Origin: Thermoplasmata archaeon
GTDB taxonomy: Archaea; Thermoplasmatota; Thermoplasmata; Lutacidiplasmatales; SKW197
DNA: 64,000 nucleotides
Reading direction: 5' to 3'
Assembly (NCBI GenBank): GCA_038874435.1
Contig: JAVZCK010000009.1
Coordinates: 22,977 to 86,976 of the forward strand
Position numbers and translations under genes: made by a program. Shown here piece by piece: positions 21,813-42,200 of the stretch. The notes beneath the pieces were generated by a model. The model saw only the letters and a list, made by a program, of their open reading frames with translations, did no database searches and was not told the origin of the DNA. Each line of letters begins with the position of its first letter. Position 1 is the first letter of the stretch.

Positions 21813-24800
21813 ATGGTTGAAAAAGTGAGGTGCCCATACTGTAACCTTCAGGTTGAACCAGGCATCGCAAAATGTCCCAGTTGTGGATATACTCTAAGTG
21901 TTGTGGAGAAAAAAGAGGAAAAAAGAGAGGAGGAAAAAAAGGAAATTAGAGACCCGTGGAAGGAAGTGGAGGAACTTTATAAAAAGTATGGGAAAAAAGA
22001 AAAGAAGATTGACCCGGAAACAAAAAAGGCATGGGAAGCTCTGGAGGAAATTGCAAGGCAGAAAGCACTTGAGAAAGCTGCAAAATCGGAAAGCCAGAAA
22101 CCAGTTGTTACTGAACAACCGGCACAACCAAGAAGATGGGAAACACTGGAAAAGGAAATTAAAAAAGCACCACCAGAGCATCAAAAAATTCCTGAACGAC
22201 AAGAGAGACACCAAGCACCTCGTCCAATGATGAGAGAAAAAATGAAAACGAATGGGCTCACAACCAGAAGTTACGATGGAAAAAAGCGGCGTCAGATTGT
22301 CAAGAAACTCCAGAAAAAGCTGTTTTTTGTTCCAATTCTCTTTTCTGCCATTCTCATTCTTTCAACAATTTTCTTTCTCTATAACATTCTTACTGAAAAA
22401 AAGGTGAGAATGCTCGTGGATGGGGACTTTGATGACTGGGATAGCATTGGTAAATTCAGCTTCTATGAGCAAGCAGGCACTGTGAATCCAAACATCAACA
22501 TTACTTCTGCAGCAATTTGCGAGGATAAAAACACAGTATTTGTTTACATAAAGGTGGAAGGTAACGCTCTATATGGCAACAACATTAACCGTACCGACGA
22601 ATTCTTCCTGTTCTTTGATACTGACAGAACTACAACCACTGGCTATTTAGTAAATGGCATCGGTGCAGATTTTATGATTAGGGTCACTGGTATCTCCAAT
22701 AAAGTGCTTTCAACAGGACTCTATTCTTACAATGGATCAACATTTGGACTACAGCACAACTGGAACGCCTGGCAGTGTGTTGGGAGTTGTGTTGCCGCAG
22801 TTCACGGCTCTGAAATTGAGGTGGGTGTGAGCAAGGCCAAGATTGGCTATGCAAATGCTCCTGTGCAGATTGTTGCAAACAGTTTTACTGGTGACACTGA
22901 CGAAATTCCATATCCCCTTGTTTCTGGAAATGCAGTACTTGTGACTGAGGTCTATGAACTCCCTGCAGTAATTTCTCAAAGCGAGGTAAAGGTGGAGACA
23001 GCATTTCTGAAGGTGATTGGAAAACCTGAGGTCGGAAGCATCTTCGTAAACGCCTCGTCTTCTCTCATAACAGCCAGTATAGAATACAATGGGAATAGAC
23101 ACATCATGCTTAGGGCTGAGAACAATCTGCTTCATGCAACTATTGGCACCACATTTGCAGATGGGGACCGTTTTTCAATTTACGCAACAACTTCTCTCAA
23201 AACTGGAGATGTCTTTGGATTAACACTTCATTCCATTGAAGTTAACAATGGCTATTTCTGGAAAAAAAGCACAGGGACTAACAACAAGAGCTATGTTCAG
23301 AGTCCGCCTTCAAGCGTTCAAATTGATGGGGCATTTGGAGAATGGATGCCAGCAACCTTCACTTATGACTATGATGACACTAAAAACCCGAGCATCGATT
23401 TGAGGCAGATTGGAAAAAATGTCAGTGGAAATGAGCTATTTTTCTATATCCAGATGGCAGGAACCGCATTTGCTGGTAGAGCTGTACCCGAGCAAACACC
23501 TGATTATTCAAGTATTGCGATGGAAACCGACTCTGACAGAGATACAATTCCAGACTCCATGGACCCTCTGCCATTTGATTTCAACAACGATGGTAACCCA
23601 GATGCAAATACAAACAATGATGTAGATGGCGATGGTATCAGAGATTATCCCTATGGAAACGATTATTATTTGAACACCACAATCCCAGACGAACCAAGAT
23701 TTCCATCAGAATTCAGGGGAAAATTTATATCGGTGTATATAGGGCCCATAAGCCAGACCGGTGAAATGCTTGCTGGCCTGGACTATTTGAGGGTTTATGT
23801 AGATGCAGATGGTAATTCCAGTACTGGTTTTGGTGTTAGTGTAGGAACTGGAGCAGAAATGCTGCTGGAAATCAGTGGGAGAGAGGGAAAGATCACTGAT
23901 GCAAGTTTTTATGAATGGCATGGGAAATGGGATAAAACAGGGAATTTTGCGGCAGAACAATTCGGAAAACAGATTGAATTTGGCGGAGTGAAACTACCAA
24001 ATCCTGGCATCGCAAGGTATTACATAATTTCTACAGACTGGCTCGGGGAAACTGACGCTACAGAATTGAGAACCTGGATGAGAGCGGGTGAAGATGTGAA
24101 AGAAAGGGTGTTCGATGCTAACACTCGTGTGAATACAAACACAAATGGCTGGCAAATTTGGCCAGACATGGCATACAGCAACGATGGGACAATCTATGCC
24201 ATCTGGCAGAGCAACGAAACTGGATATTATGCAATCTATCTCTCAAAGTCCTACGATGGGGGGCTTACCTGGACAAACGCCGTAAAAATTCCTTACTCAG
24301 ATAACGGCTCAGACCCAGCAATTGCTGTGCACGGCAGCGGTGGGAGTGCAATAATACATGTGGCGTTTGTCGGTAGTGCCCTGGGTGGCGGTGGCTCCTA
24401 TCCAGACCTATATTATGCAAGAAGTACAGATGGTGGAGAAACCTTCACCACCATGGTGCTGGATGATAGTTATTACTCTGAAAAACCAGACATTTGCGTT
24501 GACTCAGAAGGGTATGTGTACATTGTTTACACCAATTGGTTCCTTGGATTTGATGCAGATGTCAAGCTAAGGGTTTCAACAAACATGGGGCAGTCATTTG
24601 GAAGTGCTGTGTCTATAGCAAGTACGGGCTATAACGAATACTTGCCTGCTGTAGCAGTTCAGGGTTCTGGTGCATCCTCAATTCTTCATGTGGAATACAC
24701 CTATGAGCATTACAATGAAAATGGAAACCAGAGATATGATTTAGATGTGATTTATAAAAAAGTAACAAATGCCGGGATTTCTCCATCTGTTGGAAATGCA

Positions 24801-25943
24801 GTTACTGTGGGAGGTGTAGCAAACTACTCGGAATACTCGCTCCCAAATTCAATTATGGTTGATTCCACAGCAAACATCCATCTTGTCTATACCTACAACT
24901 ACACATATTATAACTACGATGTTTACTACGCGAGAAGTACAGATGGAGGAAACTCTTTCACGATAACAAATTTAGTGGGCTACAGTCCTTACGATGAGTA
25001 CCAGCCACGAATTGCATTGGACGATTTGAACAATCCCCATATTGTCTGGCAGGATAACAGGAGTGGAAACTATGACATTTGGTACACAAATTCAAGCAAC
25101 AACGGCCAAACCTTTTTGCCATACAACAACCACATAAAGGTGAACAAAGACGCAACAACCCAGAGCCAGGCATGTGCAACAATTCTCTTCGTAAACGCAC
25201 CAAACGCCAGAAAAGAACTTTGTGTTGCCTGGGCTGACAAGAGAAGTGGGGACTATGACATTTACTTTGCCAATGGTACCAACCGCGTCTATCTAAGTGT
25301 GAACTCCCAGTATGGAACACCTTCTGGCATCGGATGGTACAATGCAGGAAGTACTGCATCTGCTTCTGTCCAGGGAATAGTTTATGATTCTGCTACTGCA
25401 AGACATGTGTGTACTGGCTTCACAGGTACAGGCTCCGCACCTTCCAGCGGTGCAACTAACTTCACAAGCTTTACAATTTACAAACCCTCAAGCATTACCT
25501 TTACCTGGAGAAACCAGTATTATTGCCAGATAACCTTCACGGGCACAGATGCTCAGCACACTGTGAATGGCTCCTATGTGGAAAATGGCACGCTTCGTAA
25601 CATTGCAGGCCTTACTGGAAACTGGGCAGGCTGGTGCGATGAGAACACCTTACTTTACTTCCATGATGTCACTTCACCCCAACAAAACTACACAACAGAC
25701 ACACACTCCTGGGTGGTAACTGGGCCAATAACTGCGGTGATACACTATAGCTCCCCAGCTGACGAAATTTCTGCTATCCCGATGCTTACGGCTCTCGTTG
25801 CCATTCTGTTATTCTTTGCCTTCTCAAAACAGCCCCAACCCAGCCGCAACATCTCCGCCTATGCCAGACATGTTAAGCCAGATAGGAACAAGAATCACGG
25901 CAAGGCAACTCATCCTTCTGGAATGGAAAAGCACTGGAATTAA
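21813..25943 (+). CDS. Giant membrane-anchored surface protein: Zn ribbon, KE-rich linker, TM, two DGxFxxW beta-sandwich domains, TSP3-like Ca-binding repeats, BNR/Asp-box propeller, C-terminal TM
   Basis: ORF track, 1376 aa. CPYCN..CPSCG; TM FFVPILFSAILILSTIFFLYNIL; VDGDFDDW and IDGAFGEW segments; DSDRDTIPDSMDP..NNDGNPD..DVDGDGIRD. Asp-boxes SYDGGLTW, STDGGETF, STNMGQSF, STDGGNSF, SNNGQTF. C-terminal TM IPMLTALVAILLFFAF. Confidence 0.8.
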   Translation: MVEKVRCPYCNLQVEPGIAKCPSCGYTLSVVEKKEEKREEEKKEIRDPWKEVEELYKKYGKKEKKIDPETKKAWEALEEIARQKALEKAAKSESQKPVVTEQPAQPRRWETLEKEIKKAPPEHQKIPERQERHQAPRPMMREKMKTNGLTTRSYDGKKRRQIVKKLQKKLFFVPILFSAILILSTIFFLYNILTEKKVRMLVDGDFDDWDSIGKFSFYEQAGTVNPNINITSAAICEDKNTVFVYIKVEGNALYGNNINRTDEFFLFFDTDRTTTTGYLVNGIGADFMIRVTGISNKVLSTGLYSYNGSTFGLQHNWNAWQCVGSCVAAVHGSEIEVGVSKAKIGYANAPVQIVANSFTGDTDEIPYPLVSGNAVLVTEVYELPAVISQSEVKVETAFLKVIGKPEVGSIFVNASSSLITASIEYNGNRHIMLRAENNLLHATIGTTFADGDRFSIYATTSLKTGDVFGLTLHSIEVNNGYFWKKSTGTNNKSYVQSPPSSVQIDGAFGEWMPATFTYDYDDTKNPSIDLRQIGKNVSGNELFFYIQMAGTAFAGRAVPEQTPDYSSIAMETDSDRDTIPDSMDPLPFDFNNDGNPDANTNNDVDGDGIRDYPYGNDYYLNTTIPDEPRFPSEFRGKFISVYIGPISQTGEMLAGLDYLRVYVDADGNSSTGFGVSVGTGAEMLLEISGREGKITDASFYEWHGKWDKTGNFAAEQFGKQIEFGGVKLPNPGIARYYIISTDWLGETDATELRTWMRAGEDVKERVFDANTRVNTNTNGWQIWPDMAYSNDGTIYAIWQSNETGYYAIYLSKSYDGGLTWTNAVKIPYSDNGSDPAIAVHGSGGSAIIHVAFVGSALGGGGSYPDLYYARSTDGGETFTTMVLDDSYYSEKPDICVDSEGYVYIVYTNWFLGFDADVKLRVSTNMGQSFGSAVSIASTGYNEYLPAVAVQGSGASSILHVEYTYEHYNENGNQRYDLDVIYKKVTNAGISPSVGNAVTVGGVANYSEYSLPNSIMVDSTANIHLVYTYNYTYYNYDVYYARSTDGGNSFTITNLVGYSPYDEYQPRIALDDLNNPHIVWQDNRSGNYDIWYTNSSNNGQTFLPYNNHIKVNKDATTQSQACATILFVNAPNARKELCVAWADKRSGDYDIYFANGTNRVYLSVNSQYGTPSGIGWYNAGSTASASVQGIVYDSATARHVCTGFTGTGSAPSSGATNFTSFTIYKPSSITFTWRNQYYCQITFTGTDAQHTVNGSYVENGTLRNIAGLTGNWAGWCDENTLLYFHDVTSPQQNYTTDTHSWVVTGPITAVIHYSSPADEISAIPMLTALVAILLFFAFSKQPQPSRNISAYARHVKPDRNKNHGKATHPSGMEKHWN

Positions 25944-27155
25944 GCCAATCCCTGTTGAAACCAGATAGATTATAAGTCCCTGCCAGCTTAACATGAAGAA
26001 CACAATGAGGGTCACACAAATCAGGGCAATGAGGGAGAGGGTTTGATACCGTACTTTCTGAATGAGTTTCAAAACGCCTCTGGACATCAAAAGGATAAGC
26101 ACGAGAGCAAACGCAGCACAGAATGCAATTCCTCCAAGCACGAGGAAAAGCTCTGCTTGTGTTTCTGGTGTGTAGAAAAGATTCATTCCAATTGTGAGGG
26201 CACCTTTACGCATTCCTATGGCAGTGAAGAAGAGCACGATGGCACCTACAAAATAAAGCACTCTGTTTGAGCCCTGAGAAATGATGAAGGTTCGCTCTCC
26301 TTTGGCTGCTGTAGCATGACCTGCAAGCAGCGCACCGACACCTGCAGTGACTGCTGGGATGAAGGCAGCAAAGAGTCCACCAAGTGTTCCACCAACACCG
26401 CCTCTGAATATTTCCTCTTTCTTTACCTCAACACTTTTTGAAACTGTTTGCTTTGGAATCTCCTTATCTGCGAAAATTGCTACCAGGAGGCTGGAGGCAG
26501 CAAACATCCCAATGAAGACAGCACCAAGTGTCTGAAATGCTCTGTCTACTGGCACAATTGTTTTGTTAAAAATAATGATGCCGAGAATGCTAGAAAGCAA
26601 GAAGGTAAGATAGCCAGCAAGAATTGTGCTCCAACCAACCCAGAGTTTTTTGAGCCTTGATGTGCCTCTGTCAAAATCCTTTGGAAATTCCGAAAGCAAG
26701 ATGAACATCACAACCGCACCTACAATCCAGAACATGTGGGGTTTAACTATTTCCCGCAAAAGTTTGAGTTGCTGCATGAACAGAGGGATTGCAATCAACA
26801 TTATGAGGACGCCCACAATTGCACCCAATGTAGTAAGAAGCACGGCCTCGTGCCCTCTGCCCTGCATCAGGTATTTCTGGCTTGGATACATTATCCATAC
26901 AGTAGAGTCATCTGGAGCACTAAGATAGATTGTGGGAATCGTGAATAGGATTGAATAGCCAACAACCAGACCCACAAGAAACATGATAAAATACATGTGG
27001 TCATGAATGTCGTTGAGAAATGCAAAGTAAATCAGGAAGGCAAAACCCATCACATTGTAAACATGAAGACCTGGGACAAGGCAGAGAACTGCGGAGACCA
27101 AAACACCCAGAAGTGCAAATCCAATGTAAAACAGTGCAATGCCAATGTCAATCAA
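25824..27155 (-). CDS. Polytopic membrane protein, TctA/DUF112-like permease
   Basis: ORF track, 443 aa, TTG start overlapping the upstream stop (TTGA). Two-fold internal pattern with LVPGLHVYNVMG / IPAVTAGVGALLAG and ...MQGRGHEAVLLTTLGAIVG resembles the TctA (DUF112) family. Confidence 0.55.
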   Translation of the reverse strand: MIDIGIALFYIGFALLGVLVSAVLCLVPGLHVYNVMGFAFLIYFAFLNDIHDHMYFIMFLVGLVVGYSILFTIPTIYLSAPDDSTVWIMYPSQKYLMQGRGHEAVLLTTLGAIVGVLIMLIAIPLFMQQLKLLREIVKPHMFWIVGAVVMFILLSEFPKDFDRGTSRLKKLWVGWSTILAGYLTFLLSSILGIIIFNKTIVPVDRAFQTLGAVFIGMFAASSLLVAIFADKEIPKQTVSKSVEVKKEEIFRGGVGGTLGGLFAAFIPAVTAGVGALLAGHATAAKGERTFIISQGSNRVLYFVGAIVLFFTAIGMRKGALTIGMNLFYTPETQAELFLVLGGIAFCAAFALVLILLMSRGVLKLIQKVRYQTLSLIALICVTLIVFFMLSWQGLIIYLVSTGIGLIPVLFHSRRMSCLAVILVPIWLNMSGIGGDVAAGLGLF

Positions 27156-28183
27156 GCAATCACCTCCATTATGTAATCACTGAAATTGTCGCCCACCTTA
27201 AGTTCATAAATGCTCCCATACTGGACGAACTTACCCTGCACCACAACAATCGCACCCTCTTTGATATCTCCCCAGTAACTAATTGAGGTTGTGGAATATA
27301 CCATCAAAGAATAATTTCCATCGCTCACAGTAAGATTGTACTGGCCAACAGAAACCACTGTCACATTCTCAAGGCGGAAAAGTTTGTTGAGGTTACTTGT
27401 GGGATTGGAGAGAAGGTCGGAGATTGCCGTGGAATTATATTTCTCCACTGCAGTATTTAAAATCTTTATGTCGAGCCAGGTTGTTGGCAGCAACTCCCAG
27501 TAATTCCTCTGTGCATACCATTTCAATGCCCCTTTTACCGTAAGATTTGCACCCTTCAGTTCGTAAAAATTCTGGGGAAACACCATTGCAAAGGTCTTCT
27601 GGAAGAACACATTTACCTCTCCATTGCCATCTGTTACATTGAAACTGTAGGCGAAACCAAGATTGGAAAAGGATTTTACTTTTCCAGTCACCTTCACTAA
27701 CTTGCCTTCAGAAGCCACGCTATTGAGTAATGAGAGGTCCGTAAGTTCTTCGTAATCCTCCTCCTTTGTCAAGATTTTCAGAAACTGAGGGTTTATTACT
27801 GTCAGCGATTTGGAATACTCAGATACACTAAGCTTGCCTTCCACCTCTACCGTCTGTCCATAACCAGGCACATTCCCAGTTTTAAGTAGCACATCAGTAA
27901 CAGTATCAGCAAGTTTCACAGAAATTGTGCCAGTACCATCATTCAGTGGAAATCTTATTGTGGAGCGTAGTTCATACTTGTCTGTGGTGTAAGAAGGGAA
28001 ATCGCTCACTTTTCCAACTATTTTGATGTGAGAAAAGCTCATGTCCTCTGTAATCTCTCCGACTTTTGTTACTGGTGTTTCCGAGGAGTAGGCCAGCCCA
28101 ATGAAAATGCCGCCGATGAGCAAAAGCACAGCACAAACAATCAGAATATGAGTTTCAGACGCTCTTGGTAAATTCCCGTTCAT
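27152..28183 (-). CDS. Membrane-anchored protein with three OB-fold-like (YhcR/tRNA_anti-like) modules
   Basis: ORF 27152..28234. I prefer ATG 28183..28181, which forms ATGA with the upstream stop. TM ILIVCAVLLLIGGIFIGLAY. Three modules of the type HIKIVGKV...FPLNDGTGTISVKL...GQTVEVEGKL. Confidence 0.65.
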   Translation of the reverse strand: MNGNLPRASETHILIVCAVLLLIGGIFIGLAYSSETPVTKVGEITEDMSFSHIKIVGKVSDFPSYTTDKYELRSTIRFPLNDGTGTISVKLADTVTDVLLKTGNVPGYGQTVEVEGKLSVSEYSKSLTVINPQFLKILTKEEDYEELTDLSLLNSVASEGKLVKVTGKVKSFSNLGFAYSFNVTDGNGEVNVFFQKTFAMVFPQNFYELKGANLTVKGALKWYAQRNYWELLPTTWLDIKILNTAVEKYNSTAISDLLSNPTSNLNKLFRLENVTVVSVGQYNLTVSDGNYSLMVYSTTSISYWGDIKEGAIVVVQGKFVQYGSIYELKVGDNFSDYIMEVIA

Positions 28184-29016
28184 GCCAGCACCTCTATTTC
28201 CCATGATGCAGATGGAATTATTTCCCATTTCCATGTATTTCCCGATTTATAGTATTTAAGTGCACCTGCCACCCGAATCTCATTCTTTTCCTTTATTTCC
28301 GGCAATGCCCCCGTGAGATTGCCAAGGGATTTTGGTACAAACACATCTATTTTGTAGCCCTGAAAATCCTGGATAACATAATCATAGGCAAAGGAATACT
28401 CTCTGATACTTGTTACATTGCCTCTTACCATCACCCTTGTACCCTCATTTTCCTGTGTGTAAGAAAGAATTTCTTTTATAGTAACTTCCGCAGGTTCTCC
28501 GCGGGTTATCTTTATCTGGTTCACATGATTCACAATCAAATAAAAATCGTTGCTGCGATACTGCAAACTGCCTGAAATCTCCACACGGTCACCAAATGCT
28601 GGGATCAGGGGTTTTCCTCTAGAGTTGAGCGCAAGCATGTCTCGCACTACATCGTCATAGACCTTTATCGGCATAATTCCAGTGCCGTCATCAACTGAGA
28701 AATAAAATGCTTTGCCTGTGGGGTTATCATAGAAAGAAGGGGTATCTGGAACAATACCCTTCACCTTTATCACAGCGTTGTTATAGCCGGGATAGATATC
28801 CTTTACCTTTATTAGCGGTGTTTCAAGCGATGCTGCCCAGGGTATGAGAAGAAGTGTGCCGACTACAGCAATTGCAAGGGCAGAATATTTGAGATAAATT
28901 GTACTCTTCTTTTTGGGAACATCGGCACCGCAGAATGGACATTCTTCAAGTGGACCTACAAATCTCTTGCACTTCGGACAATGAGTGAAGTCAATTCCGT
29001 CTTTACTTCCTTCCAT
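28180..29016 (-). CDS. Zn-ribbon / TM / two OB-fold-like modules protein
   Basis: ORF 28180..29034; ATG 29016 is preceded by GGAGGT. HCPKCK..CPFCG ribbon, TM ALAIAVVGTLLLIPW. Modules VIKVKGIV...FYFSVDDGTGIMPIKVY...GDRVEISGSL and RVMVRGNV... Confidence 0.65.
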   Translation of the reverse strand: MEGSKDGIDFTHCPKCKRFVGPLEECPFCGADVPKKKSTIYLKYSALAIAVVGTLLLIPWAASLETPLIKVKDIYPGYNNAVIKVKGIVPDTPSFYDNPTGKAFYFSVDDGTGIMPIKVYDDVVRDMLALNSRGKPLIPAFGDRVEISGSLQYRSNDFYLIVNHVNQIKITRGEPAEVTIKEILSYTQENEGTRVMVRGNVTSIREYSFAYDYVIQDFQGYKIDVFVPKSLGNLTGALPEIKEKNEIRVAGALKYYKSGNTWKWEIIPSASWEIEVLA

Positions 29017-32000
29017 GTTATACCTCCAGAACATTCAATTTCGTTTAGCGTTATCAAAATAACTGCATCTGTAGAATAATTTCTCACCTGAATTTCATAT
29101 GTGGAATTATAGAGTTTGAAAACTCCTTTTATTTTCACAGCCTGCCCGACTGAGAGCGTTGCTGGAGAAGTGGCATTCTTCTGCACATAAATTGTGAGTT
29201 TCTGACTCGTAGAATTGTCAGTTACATTAAAGAGATAGTAGTTCGCTGTAATCTCTGTAATTACTGCATAATCTAGCGTCACATTCTGGGAGAGATAGAT
29301 TGATGGATTTGAAAGAAGCGCGGAAATTGTTACTGCCTGATATGCAAAAACCGCAATTACCATATCATCTGTGTAGTTTCGTATGTAGATTTCCCAGTAA
29401 CCGCCAGTTGCATACCACTCGAACACACCATAAACATCAACATAATAGCCAGTGTAGATTGATTGAGCTTTAGCATTTTTTGAAACATAGATAGTCAGAT
29501 TAGTAAGGTCGCTAGGAGAGTCCCTTATATTGAAGTTGTATGTGGTTTTTGCCCAGTCAACATAGGCATTCTTTATACACACCTCAGTATTGTTGTACTG
29601 GTTTGGATTTGCAAGCAGAGTGGCAACTGACACCTGGGTGTAGGGAGATTGGCTGCCCACTTCCACACTATCAGTGGTTGCATTTCTGATTACAATCTCC
29701 CAGTAAGCACCGGTGGAATACCATGTAAACCAGCCAGAGACATTTACGCTCATTCCCGCACTTACCGAGGGAATGTTTGCACCGTATTCGCCATACACCG
29801 TTATGTTCGTGCTTGTGCTTGTATCCCTTATTGTGAACCTGTATGATGCATACACATAATCTACAACCATGTTCTCAAGCCGCACAAACGAATTGTTGGC
29901 TGTTGTTGTAGAACCAAGCAGAGTATTGATATCTGAATAGCTCTGGTAATTGTTGTTTCCACCTGTGCCTGTTTTGTCAATCAAGTCAGGTGTTGTGGAC
30001 TTGCCAACATAAATTTCATACGCATTGTTGTAAAGCTCAAATTTGCCCTTGATGTGCAGCAAATCACCATAATACACAACGGAAGGTCTTGTCGCATCAT
30101 ATGTAGCGTACACATTTACCCCTCTTATTCCAGAATTGTCAATAGCATAGAAACTGACATAATCGCTGATATTACTGGCATTCCAATGGACCTTATAAGC
30201 ATAGACCACATTGTTTAACTCCACATTCTTATTCAGGTAATTGTTTGGATTTGCAAGCAATTCATTCACTGTAACCGTTGTGTAGTTCTGGGACTGGCCG
30301 TAAACTTCTACACTATCAGTGGTTGCATTTCTGATTACAATCTCCCAGTAAGCACCGGTGGAATACCATGTAAACCAGCCAGAGACATTTACGCTCATTC
30401 CCGCACTTACCGAGGGAATGTTTGCACCGTATTCGCCATACACCGTTATGTTCGTGCTTGTGCTTGTATCCCTTATTGTGAATCTGTATGATGCATACAC
30501 ATAATCTACAACCATGTTCTCAAGCCGCACAAACGAATTGTTGGCTGTTGTTGTAGAACCAAGCAGAGTATTGATATCTGAATAGCTCTGGTAATTGTTG
30601 TTTCCACCTGTGCCTGTTTTGTCAATCAAGTCAGGTGTTGTGGACTTGCCAACATAAATTTCATACGCATTGTTGTAAAGCTCAAATTTGCCCTTGATGT
30701 GCAGCAAATCACCATAATACACAACGGAAGGTCTTGTCGCATCATATGTAGCGTACACATTTACCCCTCTTATTCCAGAATTGTCAATAGCATAGAAACT
30801 GACATAATCGCTGATATTACTGGCATTCCAATGGACCTTATAAGCATAGACCACATTGTTTAACTCCACATTCTTATTCAGGTAATTGTTTGGATTTGCA
30901 AGCAATTCATTCACTGTGACCGCTGTGTAGTTCTGGGACTGGCCGTAAACTTCTACACTATCAGTGGTTGCATTTCTGATTACAATCTCCCAGTAAGCAC
31001 CGGTGGAATACCAGGTAAACCAGCCAGAGACATTTACGCTCATTCCCGCACTTACCGAGGGAATGTTAGCTCCGTATTCGCCATACACCGTTATGTTCGT
31101 GCTTGTGCTTGTATCCCTTATTGTGAATCTGTATGATGCATACACATAATCTACAACCATGTTCTCAAGCCGCACAAACGAATTGTTGGCTGTTGTTGTA
31201 GAACCAAGCAGTGTATTGATGTCCGAGTAACTCTGGTAATTGTTGCTTCCACCTGTGCCTGTCTTGTCAATCAAGTCAGGTGTTGTGGACTTGCCAACAT
31301 AAATTTCATACGCATTGTTGTAAAGCTCAAATTTGCCCTTGATGTGCAGCAAATCACCATAATACACAACGGAAGGTCTTGTCGCATCGTATGTAGCGTA
31401 CACATTTACCCCTCTTATTCCAGAATTGTCAATAGCATAGAAACTGACATAATCGCTGATATTACTGGCATTCCAATGGACCTTATAAGCATAGACCACA
31501 TTGTTTAACTCCACATTCTTATTCAGGTAATTGTTTGGATTTGCAAGCAATTCATTCACTGTGACCGCTGTGTAGTTCTGGGACTGGCCGTAAACTTCTA
31601 CACTATCAGTGGTTGCATTTCTGATTACAATCTCCCAGTAAGCACCGGTGGAATACCAGGTAAACCAGCCAGAGACATTAACAGTCATTCCCGCACTTAC
31701 CGATGGAATGTTAGCTCCGTATTCGCCATACACCGTTATGTTCGTGCTTGTGCTTGTATCCCTTATTGTGAATCTGTATGATGCATACACATAATCTACA
31801 ACCATGTTCTCAAGCCGCACAAACGAATTGTTGGCTGTTGTTGTAGAACCAAGCAGAGTATTGATGTCCGAGTAACTCTGGTAATTGTTGTTTCCACCTG
31901 TGCCTGTCTTGTCAATCAAGTCAGGTGTTGTGGACTTGCTAACATAAATTTCATACGCATTGTTGTAAAGCTCAAATTTGCCCTTGATGTGCAGCAAATC

Positions 32001-33257
32001 ACCATAATGCACAACGGAAGGTCTTGTCGCATTGTAGGTGCCGAAAACATTCACGCCCCTTATTCCAGTATTGTCAACAACATAGAAACTCACATAATCA
32101 CTGACATTGCTGGCATTCCAGTGCACCTTGTAGGCATAGACCACATTGCTCAATTCCACACTCTTGTTCAGGTAACTGGCAGGGTTTGCGAGTAACTCAT
32201 TCACGGTAACTGAAATGTATGTAACTCCCTGAAGTTCAACCTTATCATCTGTTCCGTTTCTTATTGTGATTTCCCAGACCCCTTCCTTAGAATAGTACTT
32301 AAACCAGCCCTGCACAGAAACATTTGCACCTGCAGAAACACTTGGATTATTGGAACCAAATTCGCAGTAAACAGTAATGTTTTCACTGGTGCCTTCATCT
32401 CGAATTGTGTACTTGTAGGATTTATTGACCCAGTCCACAATTGCATTTTCTATTTTTACAAATGAGTAGTTTGCAGCGGGTGCATTTGCAAGCAGCGAAG
32501 CCACAGTATAGGTCGAATAAGCATTGTTTCCAAAAGTTCCAGTTGTCTCTACGGCGTCTGGTGTGCCAGCACTCACCTTGAGTTCGAATGCCTCCTTGTA
32601 TGTGGTGAATGTGCCTTTGATAACCAGCTTTTCATTGTAACTTATTGAGACAGGCCTTGTAGCATTTGCTTCTGTGTAAATGTTTAACCCTCTTGTGCCA
32701 CCATCATCTACCACATAAAATGTTGTACTGTTTGTAAGATTTGAGGAATAGTAGCCCTTATCCGCAACAATACAACCATTCAAACGCACTTTCTTCTCAA
32801 GGTAATTCTGGCTGTTGGTAAGAAGTTCGTTTACAGTCACATTCTGATATTCATCAAAGACCTCCTGTGTGACACTCAATGTCTTGCTAACGCTGTTCTG
32901 TGCACCCTTCTCGTCTTCTACCGTAAGTGTTACTGTGTAAACACCTGGCTGAGAATAGGCATGCACTGTATTCCGTAAATTTCCTGTCTTGTTGGAACCA
33001 TCCCCAAATTCCCAGAGATGTTTCACTATGGTTTCGTTGCCATCTGGATCATAGGATGTAGAAGTGAATGTTACTGGCTCATTGATTTTTGCACTTGTTT
33101 TGTCCATTGTAAAATTTGCCACTGGCGGACGATTTTCTTCAGGTTTTGGTTTGGACATCATCAAAACAATCGCGACAGCACTTATCAGCACCACAACGAT
33201 AAGCACGGCAGCTATTATCTGTATCTTCTTAAGCGCCAATTCTACCACCGAAGGCAT
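28956..33257 (-). CDS. Giant membrane-anchored surface protein: TM, PKD domain, about 12 OB-fold-like modules including four near-identical 215-aa double-module units
   Basis: ORF track, 1433 aa. TM IIAAVLIVVVLISAVAIVLMM. PKD (VTFTSTSYDPDGN...WEFGDGS...GVYTVTLTVEDEKG). Repeated ~107-aa modules (TVNELLANPNNYLNKNVELNNVVY...FYAIDNSGIRGVNVY...GDLLHIKGKFELYNNAYEIYV). Confidence 0.8.
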   Translation of the reverse strand: MPSVVELALKKIQIIAAVLIVVVLISAVAIVLMMSKPKPEENRPPVANFTMDKTSAKINEPVTFTSTSYDPDGNETIVKHLWEFGDGSNKTGNLRNTVHAYSQPGVYTVTLTVEDEKGAQNSVSKTLSVTQEVFDEYQNVTVNELLTNSQNYLEKKVRLNGCIVADKGYYSSNLTNSTTFYVVDDGGTRGLNIYTEANATRPVSISYNEKLVIKGTFTTYKEAFELKVSAGTPDAVETTGTFGNNAYSTYTVASLLANAPAANYSFVKIENAIVDWVNKSYKYTIRDEGTSENITVYCEFGSNNPSVSAGANVSVQGWFKYYSKEGVWEITIRNGTDDKVELQGVTYISVTVNELLANPASYLNKSVELSNVVYAYKVHWNASNVSDYVSFYVVDNTGIRGVNVFGTYNATRPSVVHYGDLLHIKGKFELYNNAYEIYVSKSTTPDLIDKTGTGGNNNYQSYSDINTLLGSTTTANNSFVRLENMVVDYVYASYRFTIRDTSTSTNITVYGEYGANIPSVSAGMTVNVSGWFTWYSTGAYWEIVIRNATTDSVEVYGQSQNYTAVTVNELLANPNNYLNKNVELNNVVYAYKVHWNASNISDYVSFYAIDNSGIRGVNVYATYDATRPSVVYYGDLLHIKGKFELYNNAYEIYVGKSTTPDLIDKTGTGGSNNYQSYSDINTLLGSTTTANNSFVRLENMVVDYVYASYRFTIRDTSTSTNITVYGEYGANIPSVSAGMSVNVSGWFTWYSTGAYWEIVIRNATTDSVEVYGQSQNYTAVTVNELLANPNNYLNKNVELNNVVYAYKVHWNASNISDYVSFYAIDNSGIRGVNVYATYDATRPSVVYYGDLLHIKGKFELYNNAYEIYVGKSTTPDLIDKTGTGGNNNYQSYSDINTLLGSTTTANNSFVRLENMVVDYVYASYRFTIRDTSTSTNITVYGEYGANIPSVSAGMSVNVSGWFTWYSTGAYWEIVIRNATTDSVEVYGQSQNYTTVTVNELLANPNNYLNKNVELNNVVYAYKVHWNASNISDYVSFYAIDNSGIRGVNVYATYDATRPSVVYYGDLLHIKGKFELYNNAYEIYVGKSTTPDLIDKTGTGGNNNYQSYSDINTLLGSTTTANNSFVRLENMVVDYVYASYRFTIRDTSTSTNITVYGEYGANIPSVSAGMSVNVSGWFTWYSTGAYWEIVIRNATTDSVEVGSQSPYTQVSVATLLANPNQYNNTEVCIKNAYVDWAKTTYNFNIRDSPSDLTNLTIYVSKNAKAQSIYTGYYVDVYGVFEWYATGGYWEIYIRNYTDDMVIAVFAYQAVTISALLSNPSIYLSQNVTLDYAVITEITANYYLFNVTDNSTSQKLTIYVQKNATSPATLSVGQAVKIKGVFKLYNSTYEIQVRNYSTDAVILITLNEIECSGGITWKEVKTELTSLIVRSARDL
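29660..32240 (-). repeat. Tandem coding repeat, four units of 645 bp (215 aa), near-identical over most of the length
   Basis: The anchor string ATCAGTGGTTGCATTTCTGATTACAATCTCCCAG recurs at 29670, 30315, 30960 and 31605, an exact 645-bp period. Only scattered single-base differences are seen between units. The last ~250 bp (31990-32240) are more diverged, and a further diverged unit follows to about 32885. Confidence 0.9.
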
Positions 33258-33287
33258 AATTCACTCGGGATTAATATAGGTTTCTAA

Positions 33288-34112
33288 TCAGCGGTGCTGA
33301 GTTTCGCCCTTTAGATCCCGCGAAATCTGGAGTCCACCATTCTCACGCACCATCTTTCTGTATCCCCATACCACAATTATAATTGAAACCACAACTATGT
33401 TCAGGATGACAGAGAAAAGACCGCCCCAGGTGGTTGCCATTGCTGGGATTATAAAATGCGAAAGGTTTCCCATCGTGTGGAAAAACAGTGCCGCAAGAAT
33501 ACTCCCTCCCGTATTGTTGTAAATCCATGTAAACAGAATTGAGAGAAACACAGTGCCGAGAATGAAACCCCATATTGGAACATTCCTGTATATATCCTGA
33601 TTCTCCATGAAGAACAACGGAAGGTGCCATACTCCCCAAATCAGTCCAATAATTATACCGGAAACAAGAGCATTGAAGCGGCTCTGTAATCTGTCCAATG
33701 CATAACCTCGCCAACCAAATTCCTCACACAGTGGCCCACCCAGGAAAAAGATGTAAAAGAAGGCAATCGGAATTATCCATGGCTGGGCTAAAACAGTGAA
33801 TTCTGGCACTTGGTCTCCTGCTAACACCGCAAGAACAAGGGAAAGCCCGATAATGCAGGGCATAAGGAAGAAGATTGGGATTAGCCAGATTTTCTTGAAT
33901 TTGAGGTCAACTCCTCTCTTGAGCAATTTTTTTGCACCTGCACTCCCCTCATTCACCAGTGTAAGCACAAATGCAGCGATTGTTGGGCCAAAGGGAGCAA
34001 GAAATAACGACACTTTCATGAAAATTTCAACTGCCCAGAGCGACCAGGAAATCACAAAGGTTATCACAAAAAACAGTAACAAATTTATTCTCTCATCTTT
34101 AATTTGGCTCAT
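33288..34112 (-). CDS. CPBP-family intramembrane glutamic endopeptidase (CAAX protease/Abi-like)
   Basis: ORF track, 274 aa, polytopic. Motifs CEEFGWRGYAL, GVWHLP and FFHTMGNL fit the CPBP family. Confidence 0.8.
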   Translation of the reverse strand: MSQIKDERINLLLFFVITFVISWSLWAVEIFMKVSLFLAPFGPTIAAFVLTLVNEGSAGAKKLLKRGVDLKFKKIWLIPIFFLMPCIIGLSLVLAVLAGDQVPEFTVLAQPWIIPIAFFYIFFLGGPLCEEFGWRGYALDRLQSRFNALVSGIIIGLIWGVWHLPLFFMENQDIYRNVPIWGFILGTVFLSILFTWIYNNTGGSILAALFFHTMGNLSHFIIPAMATTWGGLFSVILNIVVVSIIIVVWGYRKMVRENGGLQISRDLKGETQHR

Positions 34113-36470: not shown

Positions 36471-38348
36471 CTACACTTTTCTTTCACAAAACCCTGCAAT
36501 CTGACAATGCTCGCATCTCGGCTTTACTGGCCTGCACACACTCTTTCCGTGCTCTACAAACAGGTAGTTAATCTTTTTCCACAATGGTTTCGGAATCACC
36601 CGCTTCAGTGCATTCTCTGTCTCCTCTGGCGTCTTCGTGCTCACTACACCCATTCTATTCGAGATTCTGTGGACATGGGTATCTACTGGCAGGGCATCCT
36701 TTCCAAACCCAAACACAAGCACGCAGTTCGCTGTCTTCCTTCCTACACCTGGAAGTTTTAATAACTCTTCAATTTTCTCGGGCACCTTTCCGCTATACTT
36801 TTCCTCGATAATTCTTGCCACCTCTACAATTTTCTTAGCCTTCAAATTGTAAAACCCGACTGGTTTGATAATTTCTGCAATCTCCTCTGGATTTGCTCTT
36901 ACAAGTGTCGAGACATCTGGATACCGTGAGAACAGAGCGTCTGCTCTCGGATATGTAACCTCATCTTTCGTGCGTTGTGAAAGAATGGTTGCAATCAGCA
37001 CTCTGAATGGGTCGTCATAATGGCCAGCATTCCCGTAGATACTCTCAAGCGTCTCAACAAGCTTATACCAGTCGATGCCAGCGTTCTCTGATACTCTCTC
37101 TAACTTCCGTTTTTCAAAGAATGCAAGGGCATCGCCAGCAAGATAGACGGAACCGCAAATGCACCAAATCCCAGGGCGAGAAAGGACTGCAGAAAAAGCT
37201 TCTTCACGCTTCATCACAACCGCCTTCCTGAAATATCTTGCCGCAATTTTTTTCACTCGCTCCGCATTCTCAGCTCTCGGAGAATCTGGCTCTGTAATAA
37301 TTATCTCATCTCCAACCCTGGAAAGTGTACGCAAAATCTCCCCTTTCTTCTTGTCTTTGAAAACGCCGAAGACAAAATTAACCTTATCGTAATTCTCTGC
37401 CAGTGATTCTACAAGTGCCTCTGCACTTCTGGGCGTGTGGGCACAATCCACAATAACATCAGGTTTCTCATGCACCTTCTCAAATCTCCCATGCCAGACA
37501 GCAGTTCTCAAACCCTCTCGAATCCACCTCTCCTCCAATCCAAGCACTTTTGCACAGAGCACAGCAAGAGCAGCATTTTCAAACTGGAATCTACCTGGCA
37601 ATGAAATTTCAAGGTCTTCAAGAGACCATGTTCCGTAATTTATTGAAAATTTCCTTTTATCCTTTACTTCAATCATGTCGTTCGTAAGCACAATAAGCTC
37701 AGATTTGTTCTGCTTTGCAATCTCCTCAATAACTTTGAGTGCCTTCCCAGTAGCGCCTGTCACGACAGGCACACCCTCCTTTATTATCCCTGCTTTCTCT
37801 CTTGCGATTTTTTCAATGCTCCTTCCTAGTACGTTTGTATGCTCATGCTCAACATTCGTGATGACACAGCATTCTGGCGAGACTACATTTGTTGCATCCA
37901 GGCGTCCTCCGAGACCAACCTCTACAACTGCATAATCCACTTCTACATCTGCAAAATACTTGAATGCCATTGCTGTGGTAAACTCAAAGAATGTTACTTG
38001 CTTTGTTCTGTCTACTGCTATCATCCCATCAACAATATCCTTAATTTTATTATAATACTCCACCACTTTCTCCTTCGGTATTTTCTCTCCGTTCACCACT
38101 ATCCTTTCATTGAACTCAATTAGATGCGGTGAGGTATAAAGACCTGTTTTATACCCTGCAGATTTTAAAATCGAATGAAGGAAGGCACACACAGACCCCT
38201 TTCCTTTACTGCCTGTGACATGCACCACTTTGAAGTGTGTTTCGGGATGGCCTAGATGTTCAAGCAATCCTCTGATGTTATCAAGGTTAAGCTTAGTTCC
38301 AAATCTGGTTAAGGCATAGAGGTGCTGGAGTATTTCCTCATAACTCAT
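36471..38348 (-). CDS. Fusion protein: FolC-like Mur-ligase (folylpolyglutamate/dihydrofolate synthase family) + endonuclease III (Nth, HhH-GPD with 4Fe-4S)
   Basis: ORF track, 625 aa, one continuous frame. N-terminal ~415 aa carries [10 protein letters not shown] and a Mur-ligase layout. C-terminal ~200 aa carries [32 protein letters not shown] and CxxxxxxCxxCxxxxxC ([17 protein letters not shown]). Confidence 0.8.
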
Positions 38349-39243: not shown

Positions 39244-42200
39244 TCAGATTACATCGTCCACTTCCCGCTCAATCAGATTGAATTGGGATGCCTCCATTGT
39301 TGCAGGATTTATTGGAATAAGAAGCATTGCATTATTAATTGCAATCTGGTCCTTTAGTGATTGAATTAGACGAAGCACTGTGATAAAATTATTGTTAGTA
39401 ATCAGATACTCAATTCCATCCAGGAAGATAACTGAATCCCTGTTCTTTGATAGGAACTGTTCCAGTATCAAACTTAACTTTTCCAGGTCTTTGGGTCGCA
39501 CTGCATTCTCCTTTCCCACATTTGAGAGCCAGATTATTGGCACATCCTCCAGTTCGTATTTCTGCTTTATCTTCTCAGGATAGTCCCTGGTGACACAGAT
39601 TACCTTCGGGTTTGCCTTTGCCATGTATTCTTTAAGGTATTTGTAGGCCCTATCCGCCCGCTCACATTTGATTATGTAGGAATACCCCTGTCTGAACTCC
39701 ACCGGTTTTTCCTCCATCTCTCCACCACCGATTTTCTCTGGTGTTTTATCACCTTCGTTAGCCACAGCTTGCTCAACCCTAGGTCCACTAACAAGTGGCT
39801 CAGATTGTGTCTGGACTGGCTTGACCCCGAATTCTGCTAGATATCCTAGAATTCGCTTTGCAAGATTTTCTCCAATGGTGGGCATCCTCGCCAGGTCTTC
39901 AATCCTTGCACTTGCAAGCATCTCAACCGTTCTATAACCTGCATCATAAAGGGCTCTTGCTTTTGAGGGGCCAAGCCCTGGAATTGTGTACTTTGTCATC
40001 ATCAACCGCACAAAATTTTCTCGTTCCTTCTCACTTGGCTCTGGTACTTCTGGTTGTAAGGGAGCTTGTTTTTCTGGGATTGGAGTTTCAACTGCCTCTT
40101 TGTGTAATTCCTTCTTAACAGGAACTACCTTCGGCTCTTCTGCTGCCTCCACCTTCCCCTCGGCAACTTCAGGCCTCTGCGTGGAAAAATAACTGACAAT
40201 TTTTTTTGCAAATGTCTTTCCAATTCCTGGAATCTTCTGAAGCTCTTCAGCATTTGCCGTCCTAAGTTTTTCTATTGATACATAGCCAGCATTGAATAGG
40301 GCTTTTCCGCGTTCTGGAGTCATTCCTGGGATTCCCATGAATTTTTCAAGGGTTGACTTGAAGTAGAGTGGAGTGATTCCAAGAACTAATGATGTCTCCC
40401 TGAGGTTCCACTCTACTACATACTCTCCAGGTATCTCTCCAGAAACAAATTCTATGTTTCTCGCATTAACATTGGCCTTTATATTTTCTACAGAGGAAAG
40501 AAGAATATTCTGCAATTGTTCATCTGTAGCAATGTAAAGGTCAATTATATCGTCGATATCCAGGCGCATCTCCTTTCGCATCTCCATGACTATGCGGATA
40601 AAGTTTCTTATGTTGGACTCCAGAATGTCTTCCTCGGTCAGATTCAGGTCTATATACAAATTTCCGTTTGTGATGGGTGCCGACTGCACATTATCTGGCA
40701 GTTTTGATTTGAAGGATACCATGTTGGGAAGAATTCTAACCAATTGCCCTTCAATACCCAGCATGTACTCTCCGCGCTCAATTCCTTCCTTAATTTTCTT
40801 CGCTGATTGAAGTTTCAGCAAATGTCCAATTTTGCTTGCCCATTGTCTGTAAACAAGACCTATCGCAGAGGGATTCGGGACCACTTCTAGGATGAGTTCA
40901 TCCCAGTCCTTACCAAGAGGTAAAATCTCAATTTTTTTTGCATTCACAAACTGAGCAATAATTTTTTCGAAGTCCTTAACACTTTCAAATGTCTCTTCCT
41001 TCTCGGATTTCACAATCACTCTTCTAAGGGGGACTCGTAAAGGAATTCCTACCTTTGATCTTATCTTGTTAATCTCTTTAATAACTTCCATTGCAATTCT
41101 CATCTTTCTCTCGAGTTTATCATCTATGATAAGTTTATTTGCTGTAGGATAGTGCTCAAAGAAAACACTTTCATGCTTGCCATCGTAGGTGAGATAAATC
41201 TCCTCAGCAACATGCGGCGCAAGCGGTGCCAGCATTTTTGCGATGCTGCTCAATGTCTCTACCAAGGCATAGTAGGCAGCCATTTTTTCATGAGATAGCC
41301 CTTTTGTTCTTACCCTCTGTCTTATGGCCTTAATATAGATTCTAGATACCTCTTCTTTGATAAACCTCTCTATATGTCTCCATACTTTGTGATAGGCCAT
41401 TTTATCCATTGCGTCGCTTGCTAGAAGTTTCAGATTTTCAAGGCGTGAGAGAAGCCATTTATCCTCCAGTAATAAATGCTCGCGCACATTTTCGTATGTG
41501 AGGTCTCTGAGCTCGACCTTGTCGTTTCTCATGTATATGTTGGCGAAAACTGCAACATTCCATAATATAGAAAGAGAACGATATATTCCCTTTATTCGTT
41601 CCTCATTGTAAACTAAATCCTGCCATGGTTCTTTGGAGAGAAGATACACCCTTAAAGCATCATAGCCATATCTCCCAGCAAGATTTCTAGGTGTGTCCAC
41701 ATTTGGAGACACGTTGGTAACCAGCTGGTGCTTCTCATCCACTACATGTCCATGAGCAAAAACACTTTGGTAGGGCAGCTTGTCAAAGGCAATATAGCTG
41801 AGCACCATCTGTGAGAAGAACCAATTTTTCGTTTGTGTGTGTGCTTCAACAATAATGTCGACAGGCCAAATGCTGGCAAATTCCTCCTTTTTGGATGGAT
41901 AGCCAATAGAAGCCCATGAAGCTACACCTGAATCTATATACACATCAACTGTATCCTCCACGCGACGCATGTCCTTTCCGCACTTTTCACAAGTAAACAC
42001 AACATTGTTGATCCAAGGAATATGAAGGTACTGGCCTTCCAAAAACCCTTTTCCAGCTTTCAACTCTTGAATTGAAGACACGACCTTTGTGTTACCGCAA
42101 GAGCATTTCCAGATTGGCATAGGAATGCCCCAGTACCTTTGCCTTGAAACACACCAGTCTCCAAGGTTTGAAAGGAAATCATACATCCTACCCGAGCCAA

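Follow-up and report, generated by a model that had tools for sequence, protein, structure and literature searches.

ComEC, the bacterial DNA-uptake channel, combines a DUF4131 OB domain, a Competence domain and a metallo-beta-lactamase nuclease domain. To our knowledge archaea have no ComEC, and which protein carries DNA into naturally competent archaea is therefore unsettled; the sole candidate that we are aware of so far, a TctA-like protein with an OB-fold neighbour, comes from one transposon screen. The TctA relatives characterised to date are, as far as we know, carriers of small carboxylates, and we know of no documented natural competence in Thermoplasmata. [quoted passage not shown] 2023, PMC10133366). 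Deletion of the TctA-like gene likewise ends natural transformation in M. thermophilus, and the TctA-like protein was the sole membrane transporter recovered in the M. maripaludis screen (PMC10133366).

We analysed a 64-kb window (the whole stretch of DNA under study) from a Thermoplasmata archaeon that carries four adjoining genes, g1-g4, and read this locus as probably a new and enlarged form of a known kind of system. The sequence-only reading had found no name for such a system, which is contradicted by the 2023 OB/TctA-like precedent for transformation (PMC10133366). The likeness to the M. maripaludis pair is one of family and layout together with primer-encoded fragments. Both loci have the same two Pfam families in the same order and on the same strand, abutting or overlapping stop and start codons (TAA-ATG at the MMJJ_13020/MMJJ_13030 junction) and no TctB or TctC; in both, an OB protein has one TM segment (here g2 and g3, each with PF01336 and one N-terminal TM), and the TctA-like protein has about 11 (11-13 hydrophobic segments in g4). 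Of the M. maripaludis fragments, FSGILGI resembles LSSILGI, a near-invariant motif of g4, and SDLNEGD resembles the lead-in to GDxVxVxG in the OB modules. Whereas M. maripaludis has one OB protein, however, the Thermoplasmata locus has three with 17 modules, and adds a PKD domain, a zinc ribbon predicted to be cytoplasmic and an arm of 1433 aa enlarged by repeats.

Gene layout and boundaries

In the ORF list the four genes are co-directional and overlapping, and run on the minus strand from 33257 to 25824. Their features are as follows.

33271..33278, minus strand: TATA-like TATATTAA, within the 30 nt that separate g1 from a CPBP protease gene upstream (sequence)
28956..33257, minus strand: g1, predicted surface protein of 1433 aa; N-terminal anchor, a PKD domain and an array of 12 OB modules
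33162..33218, minus strand: N-terminal transmembrane anchor of g1, aa 14-32 (hydropathy scan)
32868..33134, minus strand: PKD domain of g1, aa 42-130 (PF18911, PKD_4, 67.8 bits; PF00801, 50.8 bits)
29073..32867, minus strand: array of 12 OB-fold modules in g1, aa 131-1395, ~100-109 aa each (module HMM; PF01336)
29676..32249, minus strand: four tandem 645-nt units in g1, modules 3-10 (repeat search, 645-nt spacing)
29022..29027, minus strand: Shine-Dalgarno-like GGAGGT upstream of the g2 ATG at 29016 (sequence)
28180..29016, minus strand: g2, 278 aa; zinc ribbon, one TM and 2 OB modules
28927..28980, minus strand: zinc-ribbon motif CPKC...CPFC of g2, ahead of the TM (translation)
28189..28194, minus strand: Shine-Dalgarno-like GAGGTG upstream of the g3 ATG (sequence)
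27152..28183, minus strand: g3, 343 aa; N-terminal TM and 3 OB modules
27160..27167, minus strand: Shine-Dalgarno-like GGAGGTGA upstream of the g4 TTG start (sequence)
25824..27155, minus strand: g4, 443 aa, TTG start; PF01970 TctA-like polytopic membrane protein

The g1 stop at 28956 lies inside g2 as counted from ATG 29016, an overlap of 61 nt, while g2 and g3 share ATGA at 28183..28180 and g3 and g4 share TTGA at 27155..27152. These stop/start overlaps and the ORF coordinates confirm the earlier claim of four minus-strand genes with overlapping boundaries. The g2 frame in its longest form spans 28180..29034 (284 aa from ATG 29034; 278 aa from ATG 29016) and that of g3 27152..28234 (360 aa; 343 aa from ATG 28183). 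The TATA-like stretch is a possible promoter element of the operon.

The OB-fold modules and the TctA-like protein

A self-built module HMM joins the g1-type modules with those of g2 and g3 and gives a total of 17, with 12 in g1 (each E<=1e-35), 2 in g2 and 3 in g3. The PF01336 OB profile matches all three proteins, with 82.9 bits (summed) on g1, 30 bits on g2 and 43 bits on g3. AF2 models module 3 of g3 with a pLDDT of about 90, and the top Foldseek PDB matches of the g3 model are all tandem OB DNA binders (Teb1, HIN-200, RPA70, Pot1 and SSB; E down to 9e-9). Neither the profile searches nor AlphaFold/Foldseek matched the modules to a carbohydrate-binding or Ig-like fold. Judged by profile scores and predicted structure, the modules fall within the nucleic-acid-binding OB superfamily. 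Every one of the 17 is acidic (pI 4.5-6.3), as are ~80% across the wider family, which is unusual for a DNA-binding surface, unless the cell exterior is acidic.

Profile searches of g1-g3 detected PKD and OB families alone, and no domain of a nuclease, a phosphatase or another enzyme. The sequence-only reading is upheld on every point of architecture: its count of about 12, 2 and 3 modules, its single PKD domain and its CxxC..CxxC zinc ribbon in g2 were all found as described, the PF01336 and Foldseek matches agree with its OB fold over the carbohydrate-binding or Ig-like alternative, and the three module proteins do lack a catalytic domain. Its association with B. subtilis YhcR (COG4085) stood in part, in that these secreted nucleases also carry extracellular PF01336-type OB modules; nothing beyond the fold is shared, the catalytic domain being missing. 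A YhcR-type nuclease was rejected, as profile searches of g1-g3 gave no catalytic domain, whether of the SNase, the 5'-nucleotidase or another type. The JGI annotation labels a g3 homologue, P0125, after YhcR.

Each of g1, g2 and g3 has a single N-terminal hydrophobic segment in the hydropathy scan, with basic residues on its N-terminal side, and we infer an N-in, C-out topology that would place all 17 OB modules outside the cell and the g2 zinc ribbon inside. The 645-nt units of g1 each encode 215 aa, i.e. two modules, and are 94-98% identical to one another at the nucleotide level. In the close relative L008 the g1 orthologue has 1006 aa with 8 modules, so that copy number differs from that of g1. 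The g1 protein has 50 N-X-S/T sequons. Identity to L008 is 91% for the TctA-like protein, 82% for g2, 74% for g3 and 69% for g1; divergence between the two is fast and graded by distance from the membrane.

The membrane protein g4 matches PF01970 (TctA) over its full length with 129.7 bits, shows 11-13 hydrophobic segments and conserved motifs where helices break, and gives a confident all-helical AF2 model (pLDDT 85.6) that matched no solved structure in the structure search. It had no NCBIfam match, and tblastn against 72,556 plasmids returned two cyanobacterial matches only, at 23-24% identity; by sequence, g4 lies very far from canonical TctA. Neither TctB nor TctC was found among the ORFs scanned by profile search across the window, and this, with the PF01970 score, agrees with the earlier description of the permease as an orphan TctA-like protein. 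Genes for a pilus, a nuclease or an ATPase were not found in the window either.

Conservation of the linkage and comparison with known systems

We surveyed 84 related loci, some of them from Thermoplasmata/DHVE2 and others spread over many phyla of bacteria. An iterated module HMM run on 2933 ORFs placed 141 of 142 module-bearing ORFs upstream of, and co-directional with, the TctA-like gene, and in 68 of 83 loci a module-bearing ORF ends <=400 nt from the TctA-like start. The immediate upstream neighbours (n=78) carry PF01336 in 47 cases, PF13742 in 28, DUF4131 in 12 and CcmE in 3, and zinc-ribbon families recur among these partners in profile searches. Bacterial loci have the OB protein gene followed by the TctA-like gene; on a DPANN branch further removed, two loci have no adjoining OB gene. 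The arrangement of g1-g4 is far beyond chance, since Aciduliprofundum boonei, a cultivable carrier, keeps the identical four-gene order and the 4-nt overlaps despite only 52% TctA identity and different flanking genes. The OB/TctA-like linkage is thus conserved over archaea and bacteria, and the co-conservation of module and permease genes that had been proposed as a check is indeed seen in relatives. The OB/TctA-like pair is shown here as a conserved, translationally coupled cassette whose range extends far past the methanogens and takes in bacteria, with an OB part able to grow into a very large, presumably extracellular array, which corrects the older view of archaeal TctA-like genes as stand-alone carboxylate transporters.

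A further new element is a third component that the cassette usually has, a YdjM-family membrane hydrolase, whose gene follows the TctA-like gene in 39 of 55 loci. This usual partner in the wider family had been missed by the sequence-only reading.

Like TctABC, which takes up citrate in Salmonella, the locus would pair an extracytoplasmic binding part with a large membrane subunit, and g4 is a full-length PF01970 protein. It differs in lacking TctB and TctC (PF03401): here the binding part is a membrane-tethered OB array, and relatives carry OB genes instead. Canonical plasmid-borne TctA genes lie beyond tblastn reach of g4, and the substrate is likely different. Membership of canonical TctABC was rejected on the missing TctB/TctC in the window, the missing NCBIfam match and the low identity of the plasmid matches. 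With ComEC the locus shares an extracytoplasmic OB fold near the membrane and a polytopic membrane part, and most relatives add the YdjM-like membrane metal-hydrolase, which distributes the three functions over separate proteins. DUF4131, the N-terminal OB domain of ComEC, scores 17 bits on g2 and g3, below the cut-off of 31.6, and has a best E of 2.2e-8 among the 12 upstream partners that match it. However, the polytopic protein comes from a family unrelated to that of ComEC, and no YdjM-like hydrolase gene lies in the 64-kb window. ComEC membership was rejected, as profile searches found neither PF03772 (Competence) nor Lactamase_B in g1-g4; the resemblance is an analogy.

Proposed nucleic-acid import and competing explanations

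DNA capture and uptake is the leading hypothesis because of the published genetic precedent (PMC10133366). Since the OB/TctA-like pair is needed for DNA uptake in Methanococcus, the locus is, by analogy, probably an enlarged variant of archaeal DNA-import machinery. The capture-and-uptake role suggested by the sequence-only reading agrees with the M. maripaludis genetics and is a hypothesis for the Thermoplasmata locus itself. That this is the Thermoplasmata version of a widespread OB/TctA-like cassette, in which OB arrays capture nucleic acid and the TctA-like protein imports it, we regard as an evenly balanced proposition. Points that weigh against it are the acidity of the modules, the lack of pilus, nuclease, ATPase and YdjM-like genes in the 64-kb window, the g4 model with no match among solved structures, the small carboxylates carried by characterised TctA relatives, the two DPANN loci with no adjoining OB gene and, as far as we know, the lack of documented competence in Thermoplasmata. 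The unit of such a cassette would be at least one membrane-anchored, extracellular OB-fold protein, translationally coupled just upstream of a TctA-like (PF01970) protein. By extension from M. maripaludis, the OB arrays would catch DNA, or some other nucleic acid, outside the cell at its surface and hand it to the OB modules that g2 and g3 hold close to the membrane, and the TctA-like protein would mediate or energise its passage across the membrane. The long, sequon-rich, fast-evolving and copy-number-variable g1 array is best taken as a surface-exposed capture arm that extends reach. The OB proteins would fill the role of the TctC receptor and of TctB in canonical tripartite tricarboxylate transporters, and the cassette would resemble a ComEC split into its OB domain, membrane domain and hydrolase, the last supplied in most relatives by the YdjM-like metal-hydrolase, whose gene is not at the locus in the Thermoplasmata lineage.

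It is rather unlikely, though worth serious weight, that g4 is a secondary transporter of small anions (nucleotides, short oligonucleotides, carboxylates or phosphorylated compounds), with the tethered OB proteins standing in for TctC/TctB and the M. maripaludis defect being indirect or due to import of degradation products. Full-length PF01970 homology, some 11-13 hydrophobic segments with motifs at helix breaks as in solute transporters, and an earlier comparative study that guessed the archaeal family arCOG04469 to transport carboxylates (PMC5898192) all favour it; the acidic modules speak against simple electrostatic DNA binding. However, the partner domains consistently belong to a nucleic-acid-binding OB superfamily, g4 is far from canonical TctA, and a 12-module arm is hard to account for; in M. 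maripaludis the transformation defect was complete and was complemented for both genes, and no other membrane transporter came out of the screen (PMC10133366).

The PKD domain of g1, its 50 N-glycosylation sequons and its acidic, aromatic-rich modules would also suit a cell-envelope scaffold or adhesin made of structural or glycan-binding arrays (for instance for attachment, S-layer tethering or as a virus-receptor decoy) with the TctA-like protein as anchor or assembly partner, and divergence graded by membrane distance and variable repeat number are typical of exposed surface proteins. This explanation is improbable, as the modules have no carbohydrate-binding or Ig-like match and it leaves unexplained the strict linkage to a conserved polytopic protein across very different bacterial and archaeal envelopes, the recurrent YdjM-like hydrolase and the M. 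maripaludis phenotype. That membrane-anchored OB domains pass haem or a metal cofactor to or from the permease in the manner of CcmE is highly improbable: the TM-plus-OB topology is similar, g1 gives a weak PF03100 score (44.7 bits summed, no single significant stretch), and two g3 homologues and 3 of the 78 upstream neighbours also match, but such matches are rare and far weaker than those to PF01336/PF13742, no cytochrome c maturation (ccm) genes lie nearby, and 17 tandem modules would be senseless for a chaperone.

Returning to nucleic-acid import, a wider proposal is that the OB, TctA-like and (usually) YdjM-like cassette is a ComEC-independent importer of Euryarchaeota/Thermoplasmatota and many bacterial phyla, with the TctA-like protein as conduit, the OB proteins as DNA handlers, YdjM as strand-degrading nuclease and the 17-module arm, variable in copy number, as a far-reaching means of capture in place of pili or alongside them; we put this forward as possible but doubtful. 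The locus and its 80-odd relatives provide concrete targets for the import hypothesis, and the bacterial phyla with the cassette include Chloroflexota, Myxococcota, Verrucomicrobiota, Spirochaetota and Planctomycetota.

A compact operon of OB-fold proteins and a TctA-like protein

Four minus-strand genes of the window form one compact operon, whose boundaries are as the sequence-only reading had described them.

Genes of the operon
28956..33257, minus strand: g1, 1433 aa, giant OB-fold protein with a PKD domain
28180..29034, minus strand: g2, 284 aa (278 aa if the start is the ATG at 29016), zinc-ribbon and OB-fold protein
27152..28234, minus strand: g3, 360 aa (343 aa if the start is the ATG at 28183), OB-fold protein
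25824..27155, minus strand: g4, 443 aa, start codon TTG, TctA-like protein

With the 278-aa start of g2, the g1 stop lies inside g2 and the two genes overlap by 61 nt (28956..29016); g2 meets g3 in an ATGA (28183..28180, minus strand) and g3 meets g4 in a TTGA (27155..27152, minus strand). Shine-Dalgarno-like motifs (GGAGGT, GAGGTG and GGAGGTGA) lie ahead of the proposed g2, g3 and g4 starts, respectively, and the 30-nt gap 5' of g1 holds a TATA-like TATATTAA. Several Thermoplasmata/DHVE2 relatives, though not all, also have an unusually long overlap (40-61 nt) in which the giant OB gene runs into the zinc-ribbon-coding start of the gene after it.

Long overlaps of the giant gene and the zinc-ribbon gene
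28956..29016, window
7870-7918, L002 (the Aciduliprofundum boonei locus)
5140-5200, L008 (a close relative of the window locus)

In Pfam searches, g1 carries a PKD domain (aa 42-130, 67.8 bits) and matches the OB-fold family PF01336 with 82.9 bits, the sum of many weak repeats; g2 and g3 match the same family with 30 and 43 bits. An HMM built from the g1 repeats located 17 modules (g1, 12; g2, 2; g3, 3), where about 17 had been estimated. Within g1, modules 3-10 are arranged as four tandem units of 645 nt with 94-98% nucleotide identity, an array missed by Tandem Repeats Finder, since a 645-nt period exceeds its 500-nt limit, and resolved by a separate repeat search. The membrane anchors, single g1 PKD domain and g2 CxxC..CxxC zinc ribbon noticed earlier were all found: a single N-terminal hydrophobic anchor is present on each of g1, g2 and g3, and CPKC...CPFC precedes that of g2. 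The 50 N-X-S/T sequons of g1 are consistent with an extracellular glycoprotein. All 17 window modules are acidic (pI 4.5-6.3) and aromatic-rich, a character shared by ~80% of modules family-wide. Pfam and NCBIfam scans of g1-g4 matched no nuclease, phosphatase or other enzymatic family, in agreement with the earlier claim that no catalytic domain is attached.

The modules are members of the nucleic-acid-binding OB superfamily. The AlphaFold2 model of g3 (mean pLDDT 63.9; ~90 in module 3) consists of a repeated unit of five beta strands and an inserted helix, and Foldseek returned 198 PDB matches to it at E<=1e-3, the best 50 of which are without exception OB-fold proteins that bind nucleic acid, most of them tandem DNA binders. 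Matches include Teb1 AB (E 9e-9), HIN-200 domains on dsDNA, RPA70 DBD-A/B, Pot1 and SSB. Homology links the g1-type modules to modules 2 and 3 of g3 (E 3e-6 and 2e-12) and to module 2 of g2 (E 2e-5). Therefore, a carbohydrate-binding or Ig-like fold is not indicated, and the OB fold proposed from the sequence is borne out by both PF01336 and Foldseek. PDB sequence searches with g3 and the 215-aa g1 unit returned nothing useful.

Over its full length, g4 is a PF01970 (TctA) protein (129.7 bits, Pfam), with 92% identity to a Thermoplasmata MAG protein and 52% to an A. boonei protein. Family scans of ORFs in the 64-kb window found no TctB- or TctC-like genes, so the description of g4 as an orphan TctA permease holds. 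The g4 model is confident (pLDDT 85.6), and the invariant family motifs PGLHVYNV, SAPDDST, SEWPK, PAVTxG and SRR fall at its inter-helix breaks. A likeness to solved elevator-type transporters was expected, but Foldseek of the model gave no significant PDB neighbour (best E 0.036, TM 0.15). A PDB sequence search with g4 yielded nothing useful, and hhalign of its N-terminal versus C-terminal half revealed no internal repeat.

Co-conservation across archaea and bacteria

The TctA-like protein is the conserved polytopic partner of the OB proteins. The complete genome of A. boonei (CP001941) has the same four-gene order as the window (PKD+OB giant, 1084 aa; OB protein, 268 aa; zinc-ribbon+OB protein, 443 aa; TctA-like protein, 440 aa), with 4-nt overlaps as in the window and entirely different flanking genes, and bacterial g4 homologues (~42% identity) also sit after an OB-fold gene. 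A genome scan placed g4 relatives at 489 loci, the best 80 of which cover Thermoplasmata/DHVE2, Chloroflexota, Myxococcales, Verrucomicrobiota, Spirochaetes and Planctomycetes, among others. Among 78 immediate upstream neighbours of the TctA-like gene, PF01336 was matched in 47, PF13742 in 28, zinc ribbons in about 20 and DUF4131, the ComEC N-terminal OB domain, in 12.

The OB proteins diverge too fast for sequence searching, which with g3 yielded only 6 homologues; OB partners were detected by neighbourhood instead. Using an iterated HMM seeded with the 17 window modules, we searched 2933 ORFs of >=80 aa in 84 loci and found 142 module-bearing ORFs, 141 of them co-directional with and upstream of the TctA-like gene. 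A module ORF ends <=400 nt from the TctA start in 68/83 loci and lies <=6.5 kb from the TctA-like gene in 76/83. These statistics rule out chance adjacency of the module genes and the TctA-like gene; the four-gene structure is real and non-random, and the permease/module linkage that the sequence-only reading proposed to check is kept in relatives. Loci hold 2 to 17 modules, the window having the most among complete loci. The upstream CPBP/Rce1 protease gene (33288..34112) was rejected as a cassette part, being absent from all related loci.

In 39/55 loci, archaeal and bacterial, the co-directional gene directly 3' of the TctA-like gene is a YdjM family member, and the conserved core therefore includes a YdjM-like protein, in the order OB protein(s), TctA-like, YdjM-like. 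YdjM (PF04307) is predicted to be a metal-dependent hydrolase bound to the membrane.

YdjM-like genes (~335-410 aa)
11330-12463, L002 (A. boonei)
7573-8670, L005 (a related locus)
37 further related loci

An HMM search found no YdjM-like ORF in the whole 64-kb window; there, and in its closest relatives L007 and L008, a convergent gene takes this position. The convergent gene of the window (21813..25943, plus strand, 1376 aa) overlaps the g4 3' end by 120 nt, and its product has an N-terminal zinc ribbon, a TM segment, BNR/beta-propeller repeats and a C-terminal hydrophobic anchor. The convergent arrangement and tail are kept in L007 (78% identity).

By exhaustive HMMER, the wider family comprises 1235 representative clusters at E<=1e-3 and 82 at E<=1e-30; a scan of viral contigs found zero g4 relatives. 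A large DPANN (Woesearchaeota/Nanoarchaeota) branch of ~400-aa TctA-like proteins (3349 matches at E<=1e-10) is remote, at 25-31% identity, and both DPANN loci examined (L087:5001-6224 and L088:5001-6212) lack an adjacent OB-module gene. In L088, the upstream gene, which overlaps the TctA-like gene, codes for another kind of surface protein, acidic and rich in Cys.

A candidate DNA-uptake cassette

The literature search turned up a single study of direct relevance, in which Fonseca et al. 2023 (PMC10133366) reported that natural transformation of Methanococcus maripaludis JJ is abolished by transposon hits in, and in-frame deletions of, MMJJ_13020, which encodes an OB-fold protein with one TM helix, and likewise by deletion of the adjacent MMJJ_13030, a TctA family protein with 11 TM segments; both deletions were complemented. 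Deletion of the Methanoculleus thermophilus TctA-like homologue also abolished transformation, and the authors propose that the TctA-like protein is the missing archaeal DNA transporter (PMC10133366). In their primer table, MMJJ_13020 and MMJJ_13030 abut as TAA-ATG, and two short primer-encoded fragments resemble our families: FSGILGI matches the near-invariant g4 motif LSSILGI, and SDLNEGD the lead-in of the GDxVxVxG strand of the OB module. These matches offer weak but direct support for kinship with the Methanococcus pair, and orthology would rest on shared families, gene order, topology and these motifs. The earlier guess of DNA/RNA uptake thus agrees with the sole experimental data for such gene pairs; the system is therefore not unprecedented, and the view that it could not be named falls away.

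Archaeal TctA-like genes (arCOG04469/COG1784) had been presented as mostly stand-alone by Makarova et al. 2015 (PMC5898192), who guessed at carboxylate transport; the OB linkage was therefore unrecognised at that time. Our literature search returned no paper on the broad archaeal and bacterial conservation, on a YdjM partner or on the expansion of the OB part over several genes. The comparative picture appears new, and makes the question of archaeal DNA import more testable. The locus is probably an enlarged Thermoplasmata form of this candidate DNA-uptake cassette of OB-fold and TctA-like proteins: it encodes three OB proteins that together carry 17 modules and one PKD domain, and the YdjM partner is missing.

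We infer an N-in, C-out orientation of the OB proteins from the one hydrophobic segment that each has at its N-terminus, from the basic residues beside it and from the sequons of g1; this would place the 17 modules outside and the g2 zinc ribbon inside. The OB arrays may bind extracellular nucleic acid, which the membrane-proximal modules of g2 and g3 would pass to the TctA-like protein for carriage across the membrane; in loci that encode a YdjM-like hydrolase, this enzyme may process one strand. The cassette's OB, TctA-like and YdjM-like proteins parallel ComEC with its OB, channel and nuclease domains, and its receptor-plus-permease logic parallels that of TTT and TRAP systems. Points that call for caution are the acidic modules, the g4 model with neither a significant PDB neighbour nor an internal repeat, and the two DPANN loci with no OB gene beside the TctA-like gene.

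Divergence of the OB proteins and the surrounding genes

Between the window and L008, identity is 91% for the TctA-like protein, 82% for g2, 74% for g3 and 69% for g1, dropping with distance from the membrane. The L008 giant protein (L008:2180-5200, 1006 aa) has 8 modules, exactly two 215-aa units fewer than g1. Fast divergence and repeat variation are typical of exposed surface proteins attached to a membrane core that itself evolves slowly. The copy number of the g1 repeat (29676..32249; 645 nt, two modules) differs between the window and L008.

Elsewhere in the window lie chromosomal housekeeping genes (aminoacyl-tRNA synthetases, PGK, TruA, Mbh/Nuo-like membrane complex subunits and glycosyltransferases), and family scans of ORFs found no pilus, nuclease or secretion ATPase genes in the 64 kb. 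For a 1228-aa ORF (58187..61873, minus strand), Pfam gave no match at E<=1e-4. The window also encodes three large STAND-like paralogues (AAA_16 ATPase + TPR), at 9429..12005 (plus strand), 49365..52352 (plus strand) and 52738..55266 (minus strand). A tRNA gene at 3850..3958 (minus strand) probably contains an intron, because the match covers 109 nt, against 71 positions in the model. Two genes encode fusions: a 1425-aa protein (39244..43521, minus strand) joins a class I aminoacyl-tRNA synthetase (tRNA-synt_1 + Anticodon_1) to helix-hairpin-helix repeats and a C-terminal DUF835, a domain also found in a separate protein at 7577..9391, and in a 625-aa protein (36471..38348, minus strand) a base-excision repair domain of the HhH-GPD (endonuclease III-like) type is joined to a FolC/Mur-ligase-like domain.
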